The position numbers were made by a program, and so were the translations under genes. Below the pieces are notes generated by a model, which saw only the letters and a list, made by a program, of their open reading frames with translations, had not been told where the DNA came from and did no database searches. From a virus (Duplodnaviria; Heunggongvirae; Uroviricota; Caudoviricetes), in the IMG/VR virus record IMGVR_UViG_2851949629_000008, positions 1-45,030 of that record: a stretch of DNA of 45,030 nt. One strand, written 5' to 3'. This document shows, in pieces, positions 1 through 45,030 of the stretch (position 1 is the stretch's first letter; each line of letters begins with the position of its first letter).

Positions 1-267
1 TTACTCTGCAGGTGAAGTCGGCCACTCAATATCAGGTGCGGTTGATGTATCAACACGGTTCAGCAACACCCGATACTTCTTCCAGGCTTCCAGCAACGAG
101 TTTTCTTCCTCCGTTGCGATCTCCAGATCTACAGCATCCTGAAGTGGCGCAATATGCTCACTGAATTCCTGGATGTAGAACTGTGTGGTGACGGTCTTCC
201 AGCCATTCGGCTCCTGCTGTATCGAAGCATACCAGGCTATTTCAATATCGCTATGCTGCGGCAGCAT
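1..267 (-). CDS. tfa: Tail fibre assembly protein (Tfa) C-terminal domain ORF, 88 aa, internal start
   Basis: Translation ends ...[27 protein letters not shown], matching the lambda/E. coli Tfa C-terminus as recalled; lacks the N-terminal half. Confidence 0.6.
16..70. repeat. Direct repeat copy 1 (tfa 3' end, ~55 bp)
   Basis: ggccactcaatatcaggtgcggttgatgtatcaacacggttcagcaacaccc recurs at 1066-1120 with 1 mismatch (g/a at the 24th base of the quoted string). Confidence 0.8.
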
Positions 268-323: not shown

Positions 324-992
324 ATGGTGAAATTAATGAAAAAAAACACAGATGATGGGGCTAAAATTTACACACCACTTACCCTAAAGCTTTATGACTG
401 GTGGGTTTTGGGAGTATCAAATCGGCTTGCATGGGGATGTCCTACAAAGGAACACCTTCTTCCACACTTTCTAGAACATTTAGGTAACAACCATCTGGAT
501 ATTGGTGTTGGAACTGGGTTTTACCTTACTCACGTACCTGAGAGTAGTCTGATATCTTTAATGGATTTGAACGAAGCTAGCCTGAACGCGGCATCGACAA
601 GGGCTGGGGAATCAAAAATTAAACATAAAATTAGCCATGATGTTTTTGAACCTTATCCCGCGGCATTACATGGTCAATTTGATTCCATTTCCATGTTTTA
701 CCTTCTTCACTGCCTGCCTGGAAATATATCTACAAAAAGCTGTGTAATACGCAATGCGGCGCAGGCCTTAACTGACGATGGAACTCTATACGGAGCCACA
801 ATTCTTGGTGACGGCGTTGTGCACAATAGCTTCGGTCAAAAACTGATGCGCATTTACAATCAAAAAGGCATCTTTTCAAACACAAAAGATTCCGAAGAAG
901 GCTTAACACATATACTCTCAGAGCATTTCGAGAATGTTAAAACCAAGATTAAAGGTACTGTAGTAATGTTTTCCGCTTCAGGGAAAAAATAG
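324..992 (+). CDS. Class I SAM-dependent methyltransferase-like cargo protein (222 aa)
   Basis: Motif I-like LDIGVGTGFYL followed by an acidic residue ~20 aa later (ISLMDLNE); appears AT-rich by eye; opposite strand to the phage late genes; sits between tfa remnants. Confidence 0.5.
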   Translation: MVKLMKKNTDDGAKIYTPLTLKLYDWWVLGVSNRLAWGCPTKEHLLPHFLEHLGNNHLDIGVGTGFYLTHVPESSLISLMDLNEASLNAASTRAGESKIKHKISHDVFEPYPAALHGQFDSISMFYLLHCLPGNISTKSCVIRNAAQALTDDGTLYGATILGDGVVHNSFGQKLMRIYNQKGIFSNTKDSEEGLTHILSEHFENVKTKIKGTVVMFSASGKK

Positions 993-1046: not shown

Positions 1047-1175
1047 TTACTCCCTGACAGGGTTCGTAGGCCACTCAATATCAGGTGCAGTTGATGTATC
1101 AACACGGTTCAGCAACACCCTGCATGCCTTCCATGCCGCCAGCAATGATGTTTCCTCCTTCGTTGCATATACTGC
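1047..1175 (-). pseudogene. tfa 3' remnant (last ~42 codons only)
   Basis: Minus-frame translation [42 protein letters not shown] is bounded upstream by an in-frame stop; it was not in the ORF track. Confidence 0.45.
1066..1120. repeat. Direct repeat copy 2 (tfa 3' end)
   Basis: Near-identical to 16-70. Confidence 0.8.
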
Positions 1176-1439
1176 TCACCTTTTTCACCCACGATTAACC
1201 AACAGCCAGATTCGCAGGCACGCCCCACCACGGCATATTCATACGCTTGCCATGTCCGAACATTTCAATCCAGCGATATTATGCCTGGGGTGTTCAAGCG
1301 CAATGAAGTACGTATTGTATCTTCGCGATTTTTTATAGGCTAATTGACGCGCAATTCTGAGCGGGGAGCGCACAATCAAACAGCACAGAATGGATCGCTG
1401 ATATTTATCCTTTTGTCGGTTTATCAAACAACAAGAGAG

Positions 1440-3275
1440 TCAATAGCGGATTGTCCCTACATCCATTTCTGGCGAATCCACTAACCAGAAATTATCTGGC
1501 TTTACAGCCAGAATGATCCAGGCAGTGTTTGTTGTTGATGACCAGGAAGGCAGCACATCGTATGCCGGGTCATCGCAAGAATCACGATAACCGTACTCAT
1601 TAAAAAGTGGAGCCATTGCTGCCACAAGATTCACCGCATTCAGCTCATTACCCAGCTTGCGCTCAAAAAGTGCCACACCTGCCGTTCCTTCCACCCACAC
1701 GCCACGGCTGTGACCACTATAACCATAATCAGGGTGGTACGGTGTGTAACCCGTGGTTTCCCTCGTACCAAATAAAAAACGCCCCATATATTTTCGGCAC
1801 TTAGCCGCTTTCTCAGCATCAATATTGGCAACAAACAATCCGCCCCAGGAAGACTGATCCAGCGCCGCTGCGTTGTCATAGTGGGTTGAATGAACCCCCT
1901 GTCGAAATCGGCCTTCATCTTCCACCCACAGACCTCTGATGATGCTCTTTGCCAGCCTGTCAGCCCGCTCACTGAAACCGTCAAATCCCAGCCGTCCCAT
2001 CAGTTCAAACAAAAACCAGATATCAACGTTATGCTCCAGTGCGCACCATTCGGCGACAAAAGTTTCATCAAAATTGCCGTCCACATAACGCCCCTGCCCC
2101 CCTTTATACAGGCCTTCACGCAGGTCGCCTGGTGTGCTCACCAGAAAAGTATCCAGCCAGGCAATGCCTGCCAATAGCTTTTCTCTGACCCGCGCAGTCT
2201 GAGTACCGTCCGGATACTTCTCCAGATAGAAAGCAAGAGCATAATAAACCCATGCCGCATTGCCCAAGCGGTAATAGGTACGCGGTGACATGGCAGACAG
2301 CCTGTTAACAAAAAACTTTACTCCACCGTTTTCATCAACAAGCGCACACAAGCCCGCAACGTATCTTTCTACAGCCTCATGTCGCTGAACCATCAACGCC
2401 AGTGCTGCCAGCGCCTGGTCATACGTGTAACACCGATCTTTCATCACCCTGATCACTTCGGGGTCTGCGTCCTCCGGCATCCAGTAGCTACGAATGAGCA
2501 GTGGAAACTCCAGCGTTGTGATCCACGCATTATCCTCAATCCGAATAAGACGAAACTGTTTTGCTCCCGTCCAGCAACGTCTGAAATAGAAAGTTCCGTC
2601 ACTATTCAAATTAGCGTCGCCGTTAAAATACTCTCCGGTTGTATAAGCATACATATCGACTTTATACTTTTCAGGTTCAGGAATATCGCAATATCCGTTA
2701 ACTGCACCGACATAATTAAAATCGATATTTTCTTTTATTTTTAAAGATATTGATGTATTAACAACCTCGGGTTGTTCCAGTTTTAACATTGCAGTAGTGC
2801 AACGACTCACGATGTCGTCAAAGTTCTCAAAGCGCAAACCGGGAAAACTATCGGCTATTCCCTGCATTTCAGACAGTAACGCTTCTGCCCTTTTTGTCGC
2901 TGATATTGCCACATCTGCACTTCGTTGCGCCTGACTTGTCAAATCTTCAAATCGTTTCACCACATCTGGCTTCAGGTCGCCTTCGTCGGGGGCAGTCAGA
3001 AAATCATTCAGCGTACCTGGTCTGGAACCTTCATAAACGGTAATGGTCCCGGCATGTGAAGGCGGAAAACCTTCAACCAACAGGGTGACGCTGTATTGAC
3101 CATACTCAACATCCATGCTGTAACGTCCAGCTTCATCCGGATTTTCTGAGGCCACCGTGTTCACCACAACCGTTGTGCTGTTACGTTTTGCCTTCAGTTG
3201 AATAGTGCAGTTCTGTATTGGTTTTCCCGCACCATCTTTCAGCACACCTGAGATTTTTACTGCTGCCATATCCAC
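1440..3275 (-). CDS. stf: Side tail fibre protein, chimeric: lambda Stf-like N-terminus with a distinct C-terminal domain
   Basis: First ~90 aa (MAAVKISGVLKDGAGKPIQNCTIQLKAKRNSTTVVVNTV...) match the lambda Stf N-terminus as recalled; the remaining ~500 aa are unrelated to lambda Stf; position after lom. Confidence 0.8.
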   Translation of the reverse strand: MDMAAVKISGVLKDGAGKPIQNCTIQLKAKRNSTTVVVNTVASENPDEAGRYSMDVEYGQYSVTLLVEGFPPSHAGTITVYEGSRPGTLNDFLTAPDEGDLKPDVVKRFEDLTSQAQRSADVAISATKRAEALLSEMQGIADSFPGLRFENFDDIVSRCTTAMLKLEQPEVVNTSISLKIKENIDFNYVGAVNGYCDIPEPEKYKVDMYAYTTGEYFNGDANLNSDGTFYFRRCWTGAKQFRLIRIEDNAWITTLEFPLLIRSYWMPEDADPEVIRVMKDRCYTYDQALAALALMVQRHEAVERYVAGLCALVDENGGVKFFVNRLSAMSPRTYYRLGNAAWVYYALAFYLEKYPDGTQTARVREKLLAGIAWLDTFLVSTPGDLREGLYKGGQGRYVDGNFDETFVAEWCALEHNVDIWFLFELMGRLGFDGFSERADRLAKSIIRGLWVEDEGRFRQGVHSTHYDNAAALDQSSWGGLFVANIDAEKAAKCRKYMGRFLFGTRETTGYTPYHPDYGYSGHSRGVWVEGTAGVALFERKLGNELNAVNLVAAMAPLFNEYGYRDSCDDPAYDVLPSWSSTTNTAWIILAVKPDNFWLVDSPEMDVGTIRY

Positions 3276-3323
3276 CCCACAAAAAAGCCCGCCAGAATAT
3301 GCGGGCTGTCATAACACTGCTAA

Positions 3324-3923
3324 TCAGAATTTATAACCGACACCCACGATAAAACCGTCAGTGCGCCAGTCACCACTGCCGGAGCCTTCATAAGCAATAT
3401 CAATGGCCACGGATTCGGTCGGGTTAAACTGCACGCCAGCCCCCCACGCCAGAGACGTGTTACTGTGGCGACCATCATCACTTGCGGTCAGCACATCGTG
3501 CGTTTTCCCCTTGTTGTCAGTTACGCGGAGATAATCCCCGGAGAAAGTCGAAACACGGCTGTAAGCCACACCCGCCATCGCATATGCGCTGAACCACTCA
3601 TTCACGCGCACAGATGGCCCCGCCATCATGCTGAACCAGCGGTTACGCACGGAATCTTCATGCCAGCGGGTATCACTGTAACGGGTAATCTGGCGATTCT
3701 TGTCTCCGGAATAACTGAATGACGTCACCAGCCCCAGCGTGTCCGTAAATTCATAACGGTATTTCACGTTAATGCCCTTCAGGTCATCGTTGCCGGGCAT
3801 ATCAGTATGGGACTGAATATACCCGGAGCTTAGTGTGGACTGATGCTCTGCTGCACTCGCTGGCGTACCAGCGGCGACCAGCCAGACTACTGCAGACAGA
3901 ATAACAGCACATAATTTACGCAT
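3324..3923 (-). CDS. lom: Lom outer membrane protein (Ail/Lom family)
   Basis: [12 protein letters not shown]... signal peptide, beta-barrel-like C-terminus ending GYKF, located after J as in lambda. Confidence 0.9.
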
Positions 3924-3990: not shown

Positions 3991-6900
3991 TCAGCTGATA
4001 CTGATGCCTGCGGTGGCTTTCTTCATCACCACAACCAGCAAATCGCTGATACTTGCTGTGGGATACCAGTTATTTACCAGCCATGCTGACACCGAAAACT
4101 CCAGTGTCATGTGACCGTGACCGGCAGGCATATCAATAACGCCACTGTAAATCAGCGTATTATCCAGCGCGGTACGGTTATAAATTTCAGCACCGTTTTT
4201 CCGCACTATCAGACGGCATGAGGAGTAAATATCAGTATGCTCTCTCTCATGCTTAGCGCCACTGAATGCCACCGCCGGAATAACAATTTGCCGGTCAAAC
4301 GGCTGATCGTCATAAACCCTGACGGTAATGGTCCTTGATGGCCACCGCTCCGGTGCTCGGGAGTCACGGGGGAAAGCTTTGCCCACTGTTTTAACGAGAT
4401 CGCCTTCAATCTGGTGCGCGGACAGTTTTCCCAGAACCCGACAGTTCTCGTTAATCGTGACGTTGTTGAGCGTCCCTGAGTTCGCATTCACGTTACCGCT
4501 GATATCGGCATTTTTAGCGGTCAGCTTTCCGTCCGGTGTCAGGGAAAATGCCGGCGGATTTCCACCGCTGGTAATGGTGGGAGCCGTCAGGCGTTTCAGG
4601 AACACGTCGTTCATGAATATCTGGTTGCCCTGCGCCACAAACATCGGCGTTTCATTCCCGTTTGCCGGGTCAATAAACGCGATACGGTTAGCGGCAACCA
4701 GAAACTGGCTCAGTTTGCCTTCCTCCGTGTCCTCCATGCTGAGGCCAATACCCGCGACATAATGTTTGCCGTCTTTGGTCTGCTCAATTTTGACAGCCCA
4801 CATGGCATTCCACTTATCGTTGGCGTCCTTCCACTCTTTCGAAAACTCCTCCAGTCTGCTGGCGTTATCCTCCGTCAGCTCGACTTTTTCCAGCAGCTCC
4901 TTGCCGAGATGGGATTCGGTTATCAGGCCTTTGAAAAAATCCAGGTAACCTTCCGCATCATCGCTCGCCCGACCGACGGCCTCCACGAATGCCGATTTGC
5001 CAACGGTGTTCACACTGCGGATATAAAAGTAATAATCATGGCCCGGTTTGATATTGATACTGGCGGCTATCCAGTACAGCCCCGTGCCAAGGTAGCGGGC
5101 TGTGGTTTCAACCTGCCTGATATCAGCAATCCGTTTTTCCGAGAACCAGAACTCAAACTGTACCGTCGGATCATAAACCGCAAGATGCGGCGTGGCGGTT
5201 ATCTGAAAATAGCCCGGCGTCAGCTCAATCCGCGACGGTGCTGCCGGTGCGGCAATCCGGAACGATACCGATGCCGGATCGCCCTGCTGTCCCCACGCAT
5301 TTACCGCCCGGACTGTCAGCCTGTAATTTCCTGGCGCCAGTTGCGTGAAGCGGTATGTAGTTTCCGTCGTCCTGGCCGTGCTGACCAGCCGCTCACTGCC
5401 ATCGTCCGCTGTTACGGTCAGACGGAGCAGGAAGCTCACGCCCTTCACCACCTTCGGTGTGTCCCATCGCGCCAGCACCTGATACTCCCCGCTGTCTGCG
5501 GTGACTTCGGCAGTCAGGTGCTGCACCGCTGGCGGCGTGACACCATTCACCGTGCCGCTCTGGTCGCCGTCAAAGTGCGCCCCGTTATCCACGATGGCTT
5601 CTTTTTCCGGTACATGCTGCACGGCGGTGATGGCATACGTGCCGTCGGCGTTCTCACGGATACTCACGCAGCGGAACAGGCGCTGGCGCAGCGTCGGCAG
5701 CTTCAGCCCCCACACGCTGTATTCAGCAACGCCGTCAGGAACACGGCTCACTTTCACCTTCACGCCGTCGGTGACGGACTGAACCTCCACGCTGACCGGA
5801 TTGCCACTTCCGTCAACCAGGCTTATCAGCGTGGTACCGGAGGATGGCAGCGTGATTTCACGGTCGAGCGTCAGCGTCCGGGTCTGGCTGTTTACCGCCA
5901 GCACGCGCCCGCCGGTGCTGATACCGGCATAGTCATCATCACAGATTTCAATGACATCGCCCGGCACATGGCGAAGCCCTTCGGCACCCACGCTGAAGTC
6001 CACGGTCTGCGTTTCCAGCAGTTCTGTTTTAATCAGCCACAGCCCGGCTCGGTGCGCCTGCCCCCGACTGGTACAGCCAAACGCATCCATCTTCGTGACG
6101 TTACGACCGTAACGGGCAATGGCCTGCGAGTCCTCCACAAGCTCTGTTGCCGTCTCCCAGCCGTTATCCGGGTCAATCCAGTTCACCTCAACGGCATTAT
6201 GGCGGTCTTTCAGGGCGCTGAAGCTGTAGCGGAACGGCGCGCCATCATCCGGCATCACCACATTACTGCGGTTATAGGTCCACACCTTATCTGATGGTCG
6301 GTCCTGCACGAACGTCAGCGTCTGCCCGTTCCATACCGGCATACAGCGCATCGCCGAGCAGAAATCACTGAGCACATCCCACGCCTTACGCTGCGTGGTA
6401 AGCCAGGCATTACAGGTGATGCGCGGCTCCGTGCCGCCAAAACCGTCCGGCACTGACTGGTCGCAGTACTGGCCGATGACATACAGCGCCCATTTATCCA
6501 CATCCGCCGCACCAAGACGTTTCCCCATGCCGTAGCGCGGGTGGGTCAGCATATCCCACAGACACCATGCCATGTTGTTGCTGTATGCCGGTTTAAACGT
6601 CCCGTCCCAGATACCGCTGTATTGCCGCGTCTGCGGGTTATAGTTCGATGGCACCTGCAGAATGCGCCCGCGAAGATGATAATTACGGCTCACCTGCTGG
6701 CTGCCGAACTGTTCCGAGTCCACCTGCACGCCGACCAGTGCCGTGTTCGGGTAGCACTGTTTCACATCGATGATTTCAGTGTATGACGACCAGAGCGTTT
6801 TGTTCTGCAGCTGGTCTGTGGTGCTGTCCGGCGTCATCCTGCGCATCCGGATATTGAACGGGCGCGGCGGCAGGTTACCCACCACCACCGAGGCCAGATA

Positions 6901-7386
6901 CTGCGAGGTGGTTTTGCCCTTAATGGTGATGTCTTTTTCCGTCACCCAGCCACCATTACGCTGTATCTGAACCAGCAGGCGAACTTCCGACGGATTCCGG
7001 TCCCCCTTTGAGGTGGTTTCCACCAGTGCCTGCACGCCGAAGGTAAAACGCAGTCGGTCAATGTTTGCCGACGTGATGGTCCGGGTGATCGGCGTGTCGT
7101 ATTTCACTTCCGTACCCAGCACCGTCTCGGAGCCGGAGGATTCAAATCCCTCCGGCGGTGTCTGCTCCTGCTCACCGGCCCGGAACACCACCGTGACGCC
7201 GGAGATGTTGGTATTCCCCTCACTGTCCAGCACCGGCGTACTGTTCAGCAGCACGCTTTTTAATCCCTCCACCGGACCTTCAACCGGCCCTTCGCTGATG
7301 GCATCGATCACACTCAGCAGCTGCGTGGACTTCAGGTTGTCCCTCGCTTCGCGCGGGGTATGCCCCTTACTGCTTCCTTTACCCAT
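3991..7386 (-). CDS. J: Tail tip host specificity protein J (1131 aa)
   Basis: Near-identical over most of its length to lambda J as recalled ([14 protein letters not shown]...); the C-terminal receptor-binding region diverges. Confidence 0.95.
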
Positions 7387-41140: not shown

Positions 41141-43612
41141 ATGAGTAAAGTCTTTATTTGCGCCGCTATTCCTGACGAACTGGCAACAAGGGAAGAAGGC
41201 GCTGTGGCTGTAGCCACAGCCATTGAAGCTGGCGACGAACGCCGTGCACGAGCAAAATTTCACTGGCAATTCCTGGAACATTATCCGGCTGCTCAGGACT
41301 GCGCTTATAAATTTATTGTCTGCGAGGATAAACCTGGCATACCCCGCCCTGCCCTCGATTCATGGGATGCTGAATATATGCAGGAAAACCGCTGGGATGA
41401 GGAGTCTGCTTCTTTTGTTCCGGTTGAGACTGAATCCGATCCGATGAACGTCACTTTTGACAAGCTGGCCCCTGAAGTACAGAACGCTGTCATGGTTAAG
41501 TTCGACACATGTGAAAACATCACCGTTGATATGGTTATTAGCGCACAGGAATTGTTGCAGGAAGACATGGCAACATTCGACGGACATATCGTTGAAGCGT
41601 TGATGAAAATGCCAGAAGTTAACGCCATGTATCCGGAGCTTAAGTTGCACGCCATTGGGTGGGTTAAGCATAAATGTATTCCTGGTGCTAAATGGCCCGA
41701 AATTCAGGCAGAGATGCGCATCTGGAAAAAACGTCGCGAAGGTGAACGCAAGGAAACCGGAAAATACACGTCTGTTGTTGATCTCGCCCGCGCCAGAGCC
41801 AATCAACAGTACACTGAAAATTCAACAGAAAAAATCAGCCCGGTCATTGCTGCCATTCATCGCGAATACAAGCAGACATGGAAAACACTGGATGACGAAC
41901 TGGCCTACGCTCTCTGGCCTGGTGATGTGGATGCCGGAAACATTGACGGCAGCATCCATCGCTGGGCAAAAAATGAAGTTATCGACAACGACCGCGAAGA
42001 CTGGAAGCGTATCTCGGCATCGATGCGCAAACAGCCTGATGCCCTTCGCTACGACCGCCAGACTATTTTTGGCCTTGTCCGTGGACGTCCGATCGACATT
42101 CACAAAGATCCTGTGGCACTGAACGAATACATTACTGAATACCTGACTACAAAGGGCGTGTTTGAAGATGAAGGAACAAATCAGAGCGCAACTGATACTC
42201 TCTCGTCGCCAGTACCAGAAACTGATGCAGTGGAAACGGCAATTCCGGACAACGAAAAAACCGAATGCAAAGTGGAAGTCGAACCATCTGTAGAGCGTGA
42301 GGGGCCGTTCTACTTCCTCTTCACCGACAAGGATGGCGAAAAATACGGTCGCGCAAACAAACTTTCTGGTCTGGATAAGGCGCTGGCTGCCGGGGCTACT
42401 GAAATCACGAAAGAAGAATATTTCGCCCGCAAAAACAGTACATACTCAGGTTCACAACAAAATACTGGTGCATCTGACACGACCGCACAGCCAGAACCGG
42501 TAAAAGTTACCGCTGACGAAGTAAACAAAATTATGCAGGCAGCCAATATCAGCCAGCCTGACGCCGATAAGTTGCTTGCTGCATCACGTGGTGAATTTAT
42601 TGAAGGGATTAGCGACCCGAATGATCCGAAATGGGTTAAGGGGATCCAGACCCGCGATACTGTGAACCAGAACCAGCAAGAAACGGAACAGAACGACCAG
42701 AAAGCGGAACAAAACAGCCCAAATACGCAACAAAACGAGCCAGAAACGAAACAACCTGAACCAGTAGTGCAACAGGAACCGGAAAAAATCTGCACCGCCT
42801 GCGGTCAGAGCGGTGGTGGCAACTGCCCTGATTGTGGTGCGGTGATGGGCGACGCAACATACCAGGAAACATTCGATGACAAGAACCAGGTTGAAGTTCA
42901 GGAAGACGATTCGGAGAAAATGGAAGGCGCTGAACACCCACACAAGGAGAATGCTGGCAGCGCTCAGGATCACGCCAGCGATAGTGAAACTGGCGAGACG
43001 GCAGATCCCTTAATTACGGTGAACGGTCATCGCGTTATCACATCCACCAGCAGGACGTGTGACCATCTAATGATCGACCTTGAAACCATGGGAAAAAATC
43101 CTGATGCCCCGATTATCTCAATAGGTGCAATATTTTTCGATCCGCAAACCGGAGATATGGGACCGGAATTTAGTAAGACTATCGATCTGGAAACTGCTGG
43201 CGGAGTCATTGATCGTGACACCATTAAATGGTGGCTTAAGCAATCACGCGAGGCGCAATCTGCCATTATGACCGATGAAATCCCGTTAGATGATGCACTG
43301 TTACAATTGCGGGAATTTATCGACGAAAACTCCGGTGAATTTTTTGTTCAGGTCTGGGGAAATGGAGCCAACTTCGACAACACGATTTTGCGCCGTTCAT
43401 ACGAACGGCAGGGGATCCCCTGCCCGTGGCGTTACTACAACGATCGCGATGTACGCACAATCGTTGAGCTGGGGAAAGCCATAGACTTCGATGCCAGAAC
43501 GGCTATTCCATTCGAAGGTGAGCGCCATAATGCACTTGATGACGCCCGTTACCAGGCAAAATACGTTTCAGTTATCTGGCAAAAACTGATCCCGAGTCAG
43601 GCTGATTTTTAA
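41141..43612 (+). CDS. RecE-like protein with a C-terminal DnaQ-like (DEDDh) 3'-5' exonuclease domain
   Basis: Middle region (LLAASRGEF..DGISDPNDPKWVKGIQTRD...CGQ.GG.NCPDCGAVMGDATYQETFD) matches Rac RecE as recalled; the C-terminal ~220 aa carry MIDLETMG, GNGANFD and HNALDDA exonuclease motifs. Confidence 0.75.
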   Translation: MSKVFICAAIPDELATREEGAVAVATAIEAGDERRARAKFHWQFLEHYPAAQDCAYKFIVCEDKPGIPRPALDSWDAEYMQENRWDEESASFVPVETESDPMNVTFDKLAPEVQNAVMVKFDTCENITVDMVISAQELLQEDMATFDGHIVEALMKMPEVNAMYPELKLHAIGWVKHKCIPGAKWPEIQAEMRIWKKRREGERKETGKYTSVVDLARARANQQYTENSTEKISPVIAAIHREYKQTWKTLDDELAYALWPGDVDAGNIDGSIHRWAKNEVIDNDREDWKRISASMRKQPDALRYDRQTIFGLVRGRPIDIHKDPVALNEYITEYLTTKGVFEDEGTNQSATDTLSSPVPETDAVETAIPDNEKTECKVEVEPSVEREGPFYFLFTDKDGEKYGRANKLSGLDKALAAGATEITKEEYFARKNSTYSGSQQNTGASDTTAQPEPVKVTADEVNKIMQAANISQPDADKLLAASRGEFIEGISDPNDPKWVKGIQTRDTVNQNQQETEQNDQKAEQNSPNTQQNEPETKQPEPVVQQEPEKICTACGQSGGGNCPDCGAVMGDATYQETFDDKNQVEVQEDDSEKMEGAEHPHKENAGSAQDHASDSETGETADPLITVNGHRVITSTSRTCDHLMIDLETMGKNPDAPIISIGAIFFDPQTGDMGPEFSKTIDLETAGGVIDRDTIKWWLKQSREAQSAIMTDEIPLDDALLQLREFIDENSGEFFVQVWGNGANFDNTILRRSYERQGIPCPWRYYNDRDVRTIVELGKAIDFDARTAIPFEGERHNALDDARYQAKYVSVIWQKLIPSQADF

Positions 43613-43676: not shown

Positions 43677-43943
43677 AGCGAACAGTACCTGATAACGCTC
43701 GACGAGTGGAAACCAAAACGGTTCAGTCTCCCAATAACAAACACTACCCTGGTGAAATACGGAAAACTAGGATACATCGTTCCAAGACCACAAAAAATTC
43801 GTGGGCGTTGGCTGATAGATCGCCGAGCAGTATTTGTTGGGCCTGGTGAAACGGGAATTGCGCCGGAAATTCATACTGGCGATGATGATGCACTGAAGGA
43901 GATTTTAACTCATGTCACCGAGGCCACGAAAAAACAGCACTGA
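43677..43943 (+). CDS. xis: Excisionase (Xis-like)
   Basis: Small basic protein immediately upstream of and overlapping int. Confidence 0.6.
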   Translation, partial: SEQYLITLDEWKPKRFSLPITNTTLVKYGKLGYIVPRPQKIRGRWLIDRRAVFVGPGETGIAPEIHTGDDDALKEILTHVTEATKKQH

Positions 43944-45030
43944 CGTAGCCGGTCTTTACGAAAAGTTTGATCGCAGAACTGGCAGAGTTTACTACCAGTA
44001 TAAAAATCCTGTGACTGGAAAATTTCACGGACTCGGAACAGACAAAGGTAAGGCAGAAAAAATCGCTTCCACAGCCAATCAGCGAATAGCTGCAGCAGAA
44101 GCTGAATATTTCATGCGCAAAATTGATGAAAGTCCGTCAGCAACAAAACGTCGGGGTATCAGATTAAAGGCATGGGTTGATCGATATCTGAAAATACAGG
44201 ACACGCGACTGAAAAATGGAGATATTGCAGCTACAACTCACAAAGAAAAAACTCGAATGGCTGCATACCTGGTTTCCCGTCTGGGAAACCACCCATTGAA
44301 AGAACTGGAAGTAAGAGACTTTGCATTAATACTGGATGAGTGGCTGGATAAAGACATGGTCAGCACAGCGAGAGTAAATCGTGGATTATGGGTTGATATT
44401 TATAAAGAAGCACAGCATGCAGGGGAAGTTCCTCCTGGATGGAATCCTCCGGAGGCTACCCGTAAACCGATCCCTAAAGTAACCAGAGCTAGGCTCACCA
44501 TGGAAGACTGGCAAAAAATTTACAATGCAACGCCTGAAAAACACTTTATCCGTAACGCAATGCTTCTTGCGATTGTTACTGGTCAGCGCCGTGATGACAT
44601 TTGCCACATGCGTTTTTCAGATGTGTGGAACGAACACTTGCATATCACCCAGGGAAAAACCGGAATGCGTCTGGCGTTACCGCTTACACTACGCTGTGAT
44701 GCCATTGGGATAACGTTAAAAGAAGTTATTGATGGGTGCCGAGACAGAATATTAAGTCCATATCTAATCCATAGTCGGCACCAGAAACAACCGAAGCCGA
44801 TGAGTAAAGACAACCTGAGCGACTACTTTGCCAAAGCACGGGATCTGGCTGGGATAATTCCACCAGCAGGAAAAACTCCGCCAACATTTCATGAACAACG
44901 CTCTCTATCAGAACGGCTGTACCGTGCACAGGGTATCGATACAAAAACATTACTAGGACATAAAGTCCAGGCAACCACCGATCGCTATAACGATACTCGA
45001 GGTCAGGAATGGGTTAAGTTGGTTATTTGA
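43912..45030 (+). CDS. int: Tyrosine integrase (lambda Int family)
   Basis: C-terminus FHEQRSLSERLY...LLGHK...DRYNDTRGQEW closely resembles lambda Int (HELRSLSARLY...LLGHK...YRDDRGREW); stop at the window end. Confidence 0.9.
   Translation: MSPRPRKNSTDVAGLYEKFDRRTGRVYYQYKNPVTGKFHGLGTDKGKAEKIASTANQRIAAAEAEYFMRKIDESPSATKRRGIRLKAWVDRYLKIQDTRLKNGDIAATTHKEKTRMAAYLVSRLGNHPLKELEVRDFALILDEWLDKDMVSTARVNRGLWVDIYKEAQHAGEVPPGWNPPEATRKPIPKVTRARLTMEDWQKIYNATPEKHFIRNAMLLAIVTGQRRDDICHMRFSDVWNEHLHITQGKTGMRLALPLTLRCDAIGITLKEVIDGCRDRILSPYLIHSRHQKQPKPMSKDNLSDYFAKARDLAGIIPPAGKTPPTFHEQRSLSERLYRAQGIDTKTLLGHKVQATTDRYNDTRGQEWVKLVI

Follow-up and report, generated by a model that had tools for sequence, protein, structure and literature searches.

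The stretch of DNA considered here, which we call the window, comprises positions 1 to 45,030 (45,030 nucleotides) of the IMG/VR virus record IMGVR_UViG_2851949629_000008 (Duplodnaviria; Heunggongvirae; Uroviricota; Caudoviricetes). It carries a side-tail-fibre (stf) gene on its (-) strand. Sequence comparison confirms that the encoded fibre is a chimera, in which a lambda-like collar is joined to a separate distal module. The gene and its parts are:

1440..3269, (-) strand: side-tail-fibre gene, 609 amino acids counted from the ATG at 3269
2991..3269, (-) strand: collar (anchor) domain, amino acids 1-93, homologous to lambda gpStfN
2847..2990, (-) strand: linker (amino acids 94-100) and single long helix (amino acids 101-141), from the model and the heptad pattern
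2490..2846, (-) strand: connector of a strand and a helix (amino acids 147-165) and seven-stranded beta-sandwich (amino acids 175-254), from the models
1440..2489, (-) strand: (alpha/alpha)6 toroid, about amino acids 261-609 plus the stop codon, putative glycoside-hydrolase (GH) catalytic domain

Residue numbers follow the ATG at 3269. The open reading frame (ORF) at 1440..3275 (-) has 611 codons when read from a GTG at 3275, and the ATG lies two codons inside it. The ATG is the more likely start, because a Shine-Dalgarno-like motif, GGTGGA, lies just 5' of it and because 609 amino acids is the length annotated for a homologue in the complete genome of phage phiSTEC1575-Stx2k. That homologue is 98.5% identical, is annotated as 'tail protein' and occupies the canonical J-lom-stf position. 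PHROGs 13714, 4128 and 7032 ('tail fiber protein') match the fibre protein with E-values down to 9e-270.

The N-terminal part of the protein is that of a lambda side tail fibre. The Pfam model PF08400 (phage_tail_N) matches residues 5-130 (E=2e-62), and residues 5-95 align with chain 9e7m, a lambda tail fibre of solved structure (E=9e-49). BLASTP against lambda Stf gives 75% identity over amino acids 3-129, nearly all of it within amino acids 3-93, where identity is about 92%; weak similarity continues to about amino acid 130. An earlier reading of this DNA (the original prediction) had stated that only the first 90 or so residues match lambda Stf, which is right for the high-identity collar and leaves out the weaker similarity beyond it. 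Collar residues 1-85 are modelled as a beta-sandwich. In Ur-lambda, Stf residues 1-91 form a collar that docks on gpV and gpM at the tail tip, followed by a flexible linker (residues 92-101) and a trimeric coiled coil from residue 102, and there are four Stf trimers per virion (PMC12617516). In the window protein the helix at 101-141 has low confidence in the monomer model. Its best heptad register places hydrophobic residues at 11 of 13 a/d positions, the 95th percentile for shuffled sequences being 9. This helix is probably a short trimeric coiled-coil stalk, judging from the model and the heptad pattern.

The distal ~340 residues are confidently modelled as an (alpha/alpha)6 toroid whose nearest structural relatives are GH15-type glycosidases. 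A fragment model of amino acids 133-609, built from a 23-sequence alignment, reached a predicted local distance difference test score (pLDDT) of 89.4 and a predicted template modelling score (pTM) of 0.91; the full-length monomer model had a pLDDT of 80.4. In these models amino acids 270-609 form eleven to twelve paired helices. The best structural matches were the GH15 homologue dextran dextrinase (9ju0; 32.2, 325 residues at 2.8 A), the mycobacterial endo-mannosidase MmpH (7qsj; 30.3, 306 of 345 residues) and the GH15 isomaltose glucohydrolase (5z3a; 28.9, 307 residues). Foldseek concurred on a toroid, with matches to GH78, GH76 and AGE-family proteins. The original prediction had described a Trp/Tyr-rich remainder with helical hairpins that resembles an alpha/alpha-toroid glycoside hydrolase. 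The composition agrees (tryptophan plus tyrosine makes up 8.2% of amino acids 99-609, and the long ORFs of the window have a median of 4.2%), the hairpins appear as the paired helices of the models, and the modelled fold is of the kind proposed. A beta-helix or other non-enzymatic fold had been named as the result that would speak against it, and here too the outcome favoured the prediction: the models contain a beta-sandwich and a helical toroid and no beta-helix, and no beta-helix protein was among the structural matches. The description of the remainder as one C-terminal domain of ~500 residues held in part. Similarity to lambda Stf ends at about amino acid 130, and the remainder is divided into a probable coiled-coil helix, a beta-sandwich and the toroid.

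The toroid belongs to a large family with a clearly conserved face. A profile search of 1.84 billion representative sequences found 731 clusters (at 50% identity) with E<=0.001, and 196 with E<=1e-30. Names were retrievable for ten distant relatives, and all of them were 'hypothetical protein'. Conservation was computed on 120 representatives that span the toroid at 25-52% identity. Nineteen positions are 86-100% conserved among them: Y283, D284, R334, G336, G391, W408, E412, H413, D416, W448, D465, L470, D471, W475, G507, W525, E527, G528 and W584. The six carboxylates in this set (D284, E412, D416, D465, D471 and E527) are 93-100% conserved. In the models, all six carboxylates are found where alternate helices begin, at their N-terminal ends, and they share one side of the barrel, which in GH15 is the active-site face. 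The general acid of GH15 enzymes is in the alpha5-alpha6 loop and the general base in the alpha11-alpha12 loop (PMC12446779). Helix order and spacing place the invariant E412 at the counterpart of the alpha5-alpha6 junction, and D571, in the alpha11-alpha12 loop, is invariant in close relatives. The spacing of residues D47/D50 and E262 of MmpH (PMC9883506) was used as a second comparison.

In 60 diverse relatives the domain that they share is covered by no Pfam model, and GH15 is not among the families listed for them. Pfam echoes of GH63 (MGH1-like), GH94, GH88 and trehalase are weak, sub-threshold and confined to a few members. The window protein does not show the significant sequence similarity, judged here by PF00723, by which CAZy defines GH15. 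A search of the literature on this protein, on toroid tail fibres and on lambdoid Stf glycosidases returned only computational surveys and no characterised member, and the fibre protein is not listed in the DepoScope supplement.

The distal module is transferable. Alignments across different anchors show that homology begins at about amino acid 148 (RFENFDD), and the module is found with at least six N-terminal anchors other than the lambda collar, which bears out the chimeric character that had been predicted. The anchors that precede it include PF08400, PF12571, PF18668, PF03406 and PF25675 (nozzle), and it also occurs in a P22-like tailspike slot. The contexts are:

lambda-like J-lom-stf position: the window, phiSTEC1575-Stx2k and strain SA53-3
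P2-like prophage: second fibre
Mu-like prophage: before com/mom
P1-like: S gene, without the U that normally follows S
P22-like prophage: tailspike slot
gpJ-like protein: adjoining it
podovirus nozzle proteins: a metagenomic phage and a Methylomonas prophage
Microbacterium phage RubyRalph: last minor tail protein
jumbo phage ph0011: stand-alone protein

The module is not restricted to fibres, since two very large podovirus tail proteins contain distant relatives of the toroid: a 1709-residue protein with a PF25675 nozzle domain (metagenomic phage, L005 8001..13130) and a 1192-residue protein with no Pfam match (Methylomonas prophage, L006 8001..11579). Each of these genes is located upstream of a T7 gp14-like gene. 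The homologue in the Escherichia jumbo phage ph0011 (L012 4923..6407) has 494 residues, is 56% identical and lies amid small hypothetical genes, far from the annotated tail genes. Such an arrangement might suit a free enzyme, or a protein attached through an unrecognised adaptor. Phages whose hosts are unrelated (Enterobacteria, Microbacterium, Thermus and Methylomonas) carry relatives at 25% identity.

Purifying selection on the toroid is strong. In comparisons with two E. coli homologues, at a synonymous divergence (dS) of 0.8-0.96, the ratio of nonsynonymous to synonymous substitution rates (dN/dS) is 0.06-0.07 for the toroid and 0.10-0.14 for the beta-sandwich. Divergence profiles place the exchange breakpoints at about amino acid 94 in one of these relatives and at about amino acid 147 in the other, and both are domain boundaries. 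In the window, GC content drops to 0.38 over 2551..2850 (the end of the stalk and the beta-sandwich) and is 0.52 in the toroid and 0.58-0.63 in J. This contrast fits a mosaic origin of the parts of the fibre.

The neighbouring genes and remnants in the window are:

3324..3923, (-) strand: lom, Ail/Lom outer-membrane protein (PF06316, E=8e-120), directly upstream of the fibre gene
3991..7386, (-) strand: J, tail-tip attachment protein or central fibre of 1131 amino acids (ORF; gpJ in matching genomes and in phiSTEC1575-Stx2k)
1239..1427, (-) strand: damaged small ORF with a 1-nt deletion; homology to the phiSTEC1575-Stx2k form ends after '...MPWWG'
1047..1172, (-) strand: 3' remnant of tfa, 42 codons from stop to stop, no start codon
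1..267, (-) strand: second 3' fragment of tfa, at the prophage end (Caudo_TAP positions 75-131, E=3.5e-26)

The order J-lom-stf, with all three genes on the (-) strand in a lambdoid late operon, is the same as in lambda. In the gap between lom and stf, at about 3285..3312 (-), a GC-rich hairpin (AGCCCGC...GCGGGCT) is followed by a run of T; it resembles an intrinsic terminator and lies directly 5' of the ribosome-binding site of the fibre gene. Expression of the fibre may depend on antiterminated late transcription.

Downstream of the fibre gene lies a damaged region. In phiSTEC1575-Stx2k the small ORF (L002 5849..6148) encodes 99 amino acids with a hydrophobic C-terminus and no Pfam match; in strain SA53-3 the equivalent ORF is annotated 'frameshifted'. 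The idea that this ORF is an obligatory partner of the fibre, a chaperone for instance, was considered but rejected, since the P2-, Mu-, P1- and P22-like contexts lack it and the window's copy is damaged. The adjoining tfa remnant at 1047..1172 matches only positions 95-130 of the 131 in Caudo_TAP (PF02413; E=2e-14), as expected from the original prediction that tfa had been reduced to 42 codons, and in E. coli TW10690 the NCBI Prokaryotic Genome Annotation Pipeline (PGAP) calls it 'incomplete, missing N-terminus'. It forms a direct repeat with the second fragment (17-117 against 1066-1166, 84% identity), and neither 1047..1172 nor 1..267 holds a full-length tfa ORF with a start codon. Between the two fragments is a gene for a class I S-adenosylmethionine-dependent methyltransferase (324..992 (+), 222 amino acids, Methyltransf_12/23/25). 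It looks like a cargo gene put in by recombination between tfa ends at the edge of the prophage.

The original prediction had also called the remnant consistent with a fibre that no longer needs the Tfa chaperone. The independence from Tfa is supported by the genomic contexts: no tfa gene follows the module in the 11 loci examined, the P1-like locus included, and the annotation of phiSTEC1575-Stx2k shows no tfa in the interval from the fibre gene to the integrase at the end of the genome. The prophage in SA53-3, at a different chromosomal site, carries the same trio of fibre, damaged small ORF and tfa scar, so the scar dates from the recombination that installed the module. As read from these loci, the tfa remnant is a shared recombination scar and is not evidence of gradual decay.

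With a tfa fragment at base 1 and an integrase ORF (43912..45030 (+)) that ends exactly at the window's last base, the sequence suggests that the window is one whole excised lambdoid prophage. An ORF of 823 amino acids (41141..43612 (+)) lies just upstream of the integrase ORF. In E. coli TW10690 (L001) a near-identical left end of the prophage abuts potB. The fibre gene there, otherwise near-identical, has a 1-nt indel near codon 391 (at about window position 2097), and PGAP annotates it as an N-terminal pseudogene and a C-terminal piece, a 214-residue protein to which it independently gives the name 'glucosidase family protein'. The TW10690 prophage is decaying, and its J is truncated too. 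Few E. coli carry the fibre module: at a nucleotide identity of 80% or more, it was present in 40 of 5426 complete genomes. Lysogens of types O169:H41, O27:H7 and O18 have fibres that are at least 98% identical.

We propose, with a probability of about 0.62, that the window encodes the side fibre of a lambdoid prophage in which the OmpC-binding distal part has been replaced by a compact enzymatic head that hydrolyses polysaccharide, and for which Tfa is dispensable. If the fibres are arranged as in Ur-lambda, four trimers would ring the tail tip with twelve collar domains. The seven-residue linker and the coiled coil of ~41 residues would present three heads on each fibre, with one beta-sandwich and one toroid per head, so that twelve toroid heads would surround the tail tip. 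The predicted funnel of the toroid, lined by D284, E412, H413, D416, D465, D471, E527 and several tryptophans and tyrosines, would bind a polysaccharide of the host surface, perhaps O-antigen, lipopolysaccharide (LPS) core, enterobacterial common antigen (ECA) or capsule. We infer hydrolytic activity on such a polysaccharide from fold and conservation, and postulate that the heads hydrolyse its glycosidic bonds. Binding and cleavage would make adsorption reversible and clear a path for J to its outer-membrane receptor. The heads would be self-folding and globular, and not intertwined like gp37-type tips; we suspect that Tfa is dispensable because each head is such a self-folding domain. Alpha-glucans and alpha-mannans are the substrates of the enzymes with the closest folds. 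The near-identical fibres in lysogens of different serotypes argue weakly against a single O-antigen substrate, and these serotypes are a weak guide to the substrate because several of the prophages are decayed.

Several results count against this proposal. The distal 470 residues of the window protein have no match in Pfam (E up to 10) or NCBIfam, and two profiles searched against all PDB sequences found no match to the distal part. The position of the GH15 base (D571, in the alpha11-alpha12 loop) is acidic in only ~70% of the family. The analogies for a catalytic pair disagree as well: GH15 points to E412 and D571, and the collinear spacing of MmpH to D284 and E527. Toroids that are not hydrolases (AGE epimerases and isomerases, terpene cyclases and complement TED domains) are among the structural matches. 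We infer trimerisation and incorporation into the virion by analogy, and the fibre would be much shorter than that of lambda. Lastly, the ph0011 homologue stands alone, outside any obvious tail module, the TW10690 copy is frameshifted, and the prophages of several lysogens are decayed.

Some of these results would be expected if the toroid were a non-catalytic, lectin-like receptor-binding domain for a glycan or a protein, with carboxylates that only bind sugar. No GH family is matched by sequence, the position of a GH15-type base is not invariant, toroids such as complement TED domains are binders, and the Stf of lambda itself is a pure OmpC adhesin (PMC12617516). However, the six carboxylates and a histidine are conserved at 93-100% down to 25% identity in phages of unrelated hosts, whereas sites that only bound a variety of ligands should have diverged, and the nearest structural matches are active enzymes. 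We consider a lectin-like domain quite improbable. The head could also be an enzyme other than a hydrolase: a polysaccharide lyase or unsaturated-uronyl hydrolase that acts on uronic-acid polymers (for example K capsules or colanic acid), a transglycosylase of the dextran dextrinase kind, or an epimerase or isomerase of the AGE type. To these activities, taken together, we assign a low probability.

That the gene no longer functions and is the relic of a decaying prophage, or that it encodes an accidentally fused cargo enzyme with no role in infection, is very unlikely. The scrambled downstream region, with its two tfa fragments, methyltransferase cargo gene and frameshifted small ORF, is what one might expect of a relic; the TW10690 and SA53-3 copies are pseudogenes, and the module is found in just 40 of 5426 complete E. 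coli genomes at the identity given above. However, the ORF in the window is intact, and its 98.5%-identical counterpart in a complete Stx2k phage genome is at the canonical J-lom-stf position. The low dN/dS of the toroid (0.06-0.07), the exchange breakpoints exactly at domain boundaries, and a module that fills the fibre or spike slot in eight tail architectures also speak against a relic.

We speculate further that the toroid founds an uncharacterised glycoside-hydrolase family and serves as a universal, chaperone-independent plug-in head for all tail morphotypes, and that its target in Enterobacteria is the conserved LPS core or ECA and not a serotype-specific O-antigen. This extension is tentative, and we think it rather unlikely in its full form. 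A conserved envelope glycan is weakly hinted at by the fibres of at least 98% identity across O169, O27 and O18 lysogens, and by a divergence of just 50% among the catalytic domains from E. coli, Salmonella, Citrobacter and Yersinia.

If the proposal of a toroid-based enzymatic fibre is true, it would add a catalytic scaffold other than the beta-helix to the receptor-binding toolkit of phages. A large family with a clearly conserved pocket and no Pfam model lends itself to study as a candidate new CAZy family. The lack of a Tfa chaperone and the many anchors make the module attractive for engineering of host range in chassis of the lambda, P2 and P22 types. The module is present on prophages of enterotoxigenic E. 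coli (ETEC) and on an Stx2k-converting phage, and its substrate would help to define the strains able to acquire those phages. Enzymatic receptor-binding proteins are already known; what is new here is a rare, uncharacterised, predicted enzymatic fold on a lambda-type fibre.

The closest known system is the gpStf of Ur-lambda (PF08400; PDB 9e7m/9mgh). The two fibres appear to share the J-lom-stf position, the collar, a short linker and a coiled coil that starts at about residue 101, and the window fibre belongs to the lambda Stf family by its collar only. In lambda gpStf the coiled coil continues for ~290 + 100 residues, with a hinge, and ends in an intertwined, gp37-like tip that binds OmpC, with tfa downstream. 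In contrast, the window fibre has a stalk of ~41 residues, three predicted globular, enzyme-like heads, and a 42-codon scar in place of tfa.

Among enzymes, the toroid was compared with the GH15-type proteins dextran dextrinase of Gluconobacter (9ju0), isomaltose glucohydrolase of Kribbella (5z3a) and the bacterial glucoamylase and glucodextranase (1lf6, 1ulv). Identity is 9-13%, with no match to PF00723 or any other GH profile, and the invariant residues D284, D416, D471 and E527 have no assigned counterpart in GH15. The toroid is thus predicted to have a GH15-type fold while falling outside GH15 by sequence. MmpH, the mycobacterial endo-alpha-1,4-mannosidase (7qsj), is 13% identical, with no sequence-level link. 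MmpH recycles polysaccharide as a stand-alone enzyme in the cytoplasm and is not a virion protein, whereas the window fibre is predicted to be one.

The tailspikes and depolymerases of P22, HK620, Sf6 and Klebsiella phages are built on a parallel, right-handed beta-helix, which the models of the window fibre do not show. According to DepoCatalog, the characterised phage depolymerases are parallel beta-helix trimers (PMC13385381). Alpha/alpha toroids make up ~1% of the predicted depolymerase folds in phage genomes (PMC11326577) and <1% of those in Klebsiella prophages (PMC12491483). The plan of these proteins is nonetheless similar to that of the window fibre: an N-terminal virion anchor carries a distal, horizontally exchanged module that acts on polysaccharide, an activity that in the window fibre is predicted.

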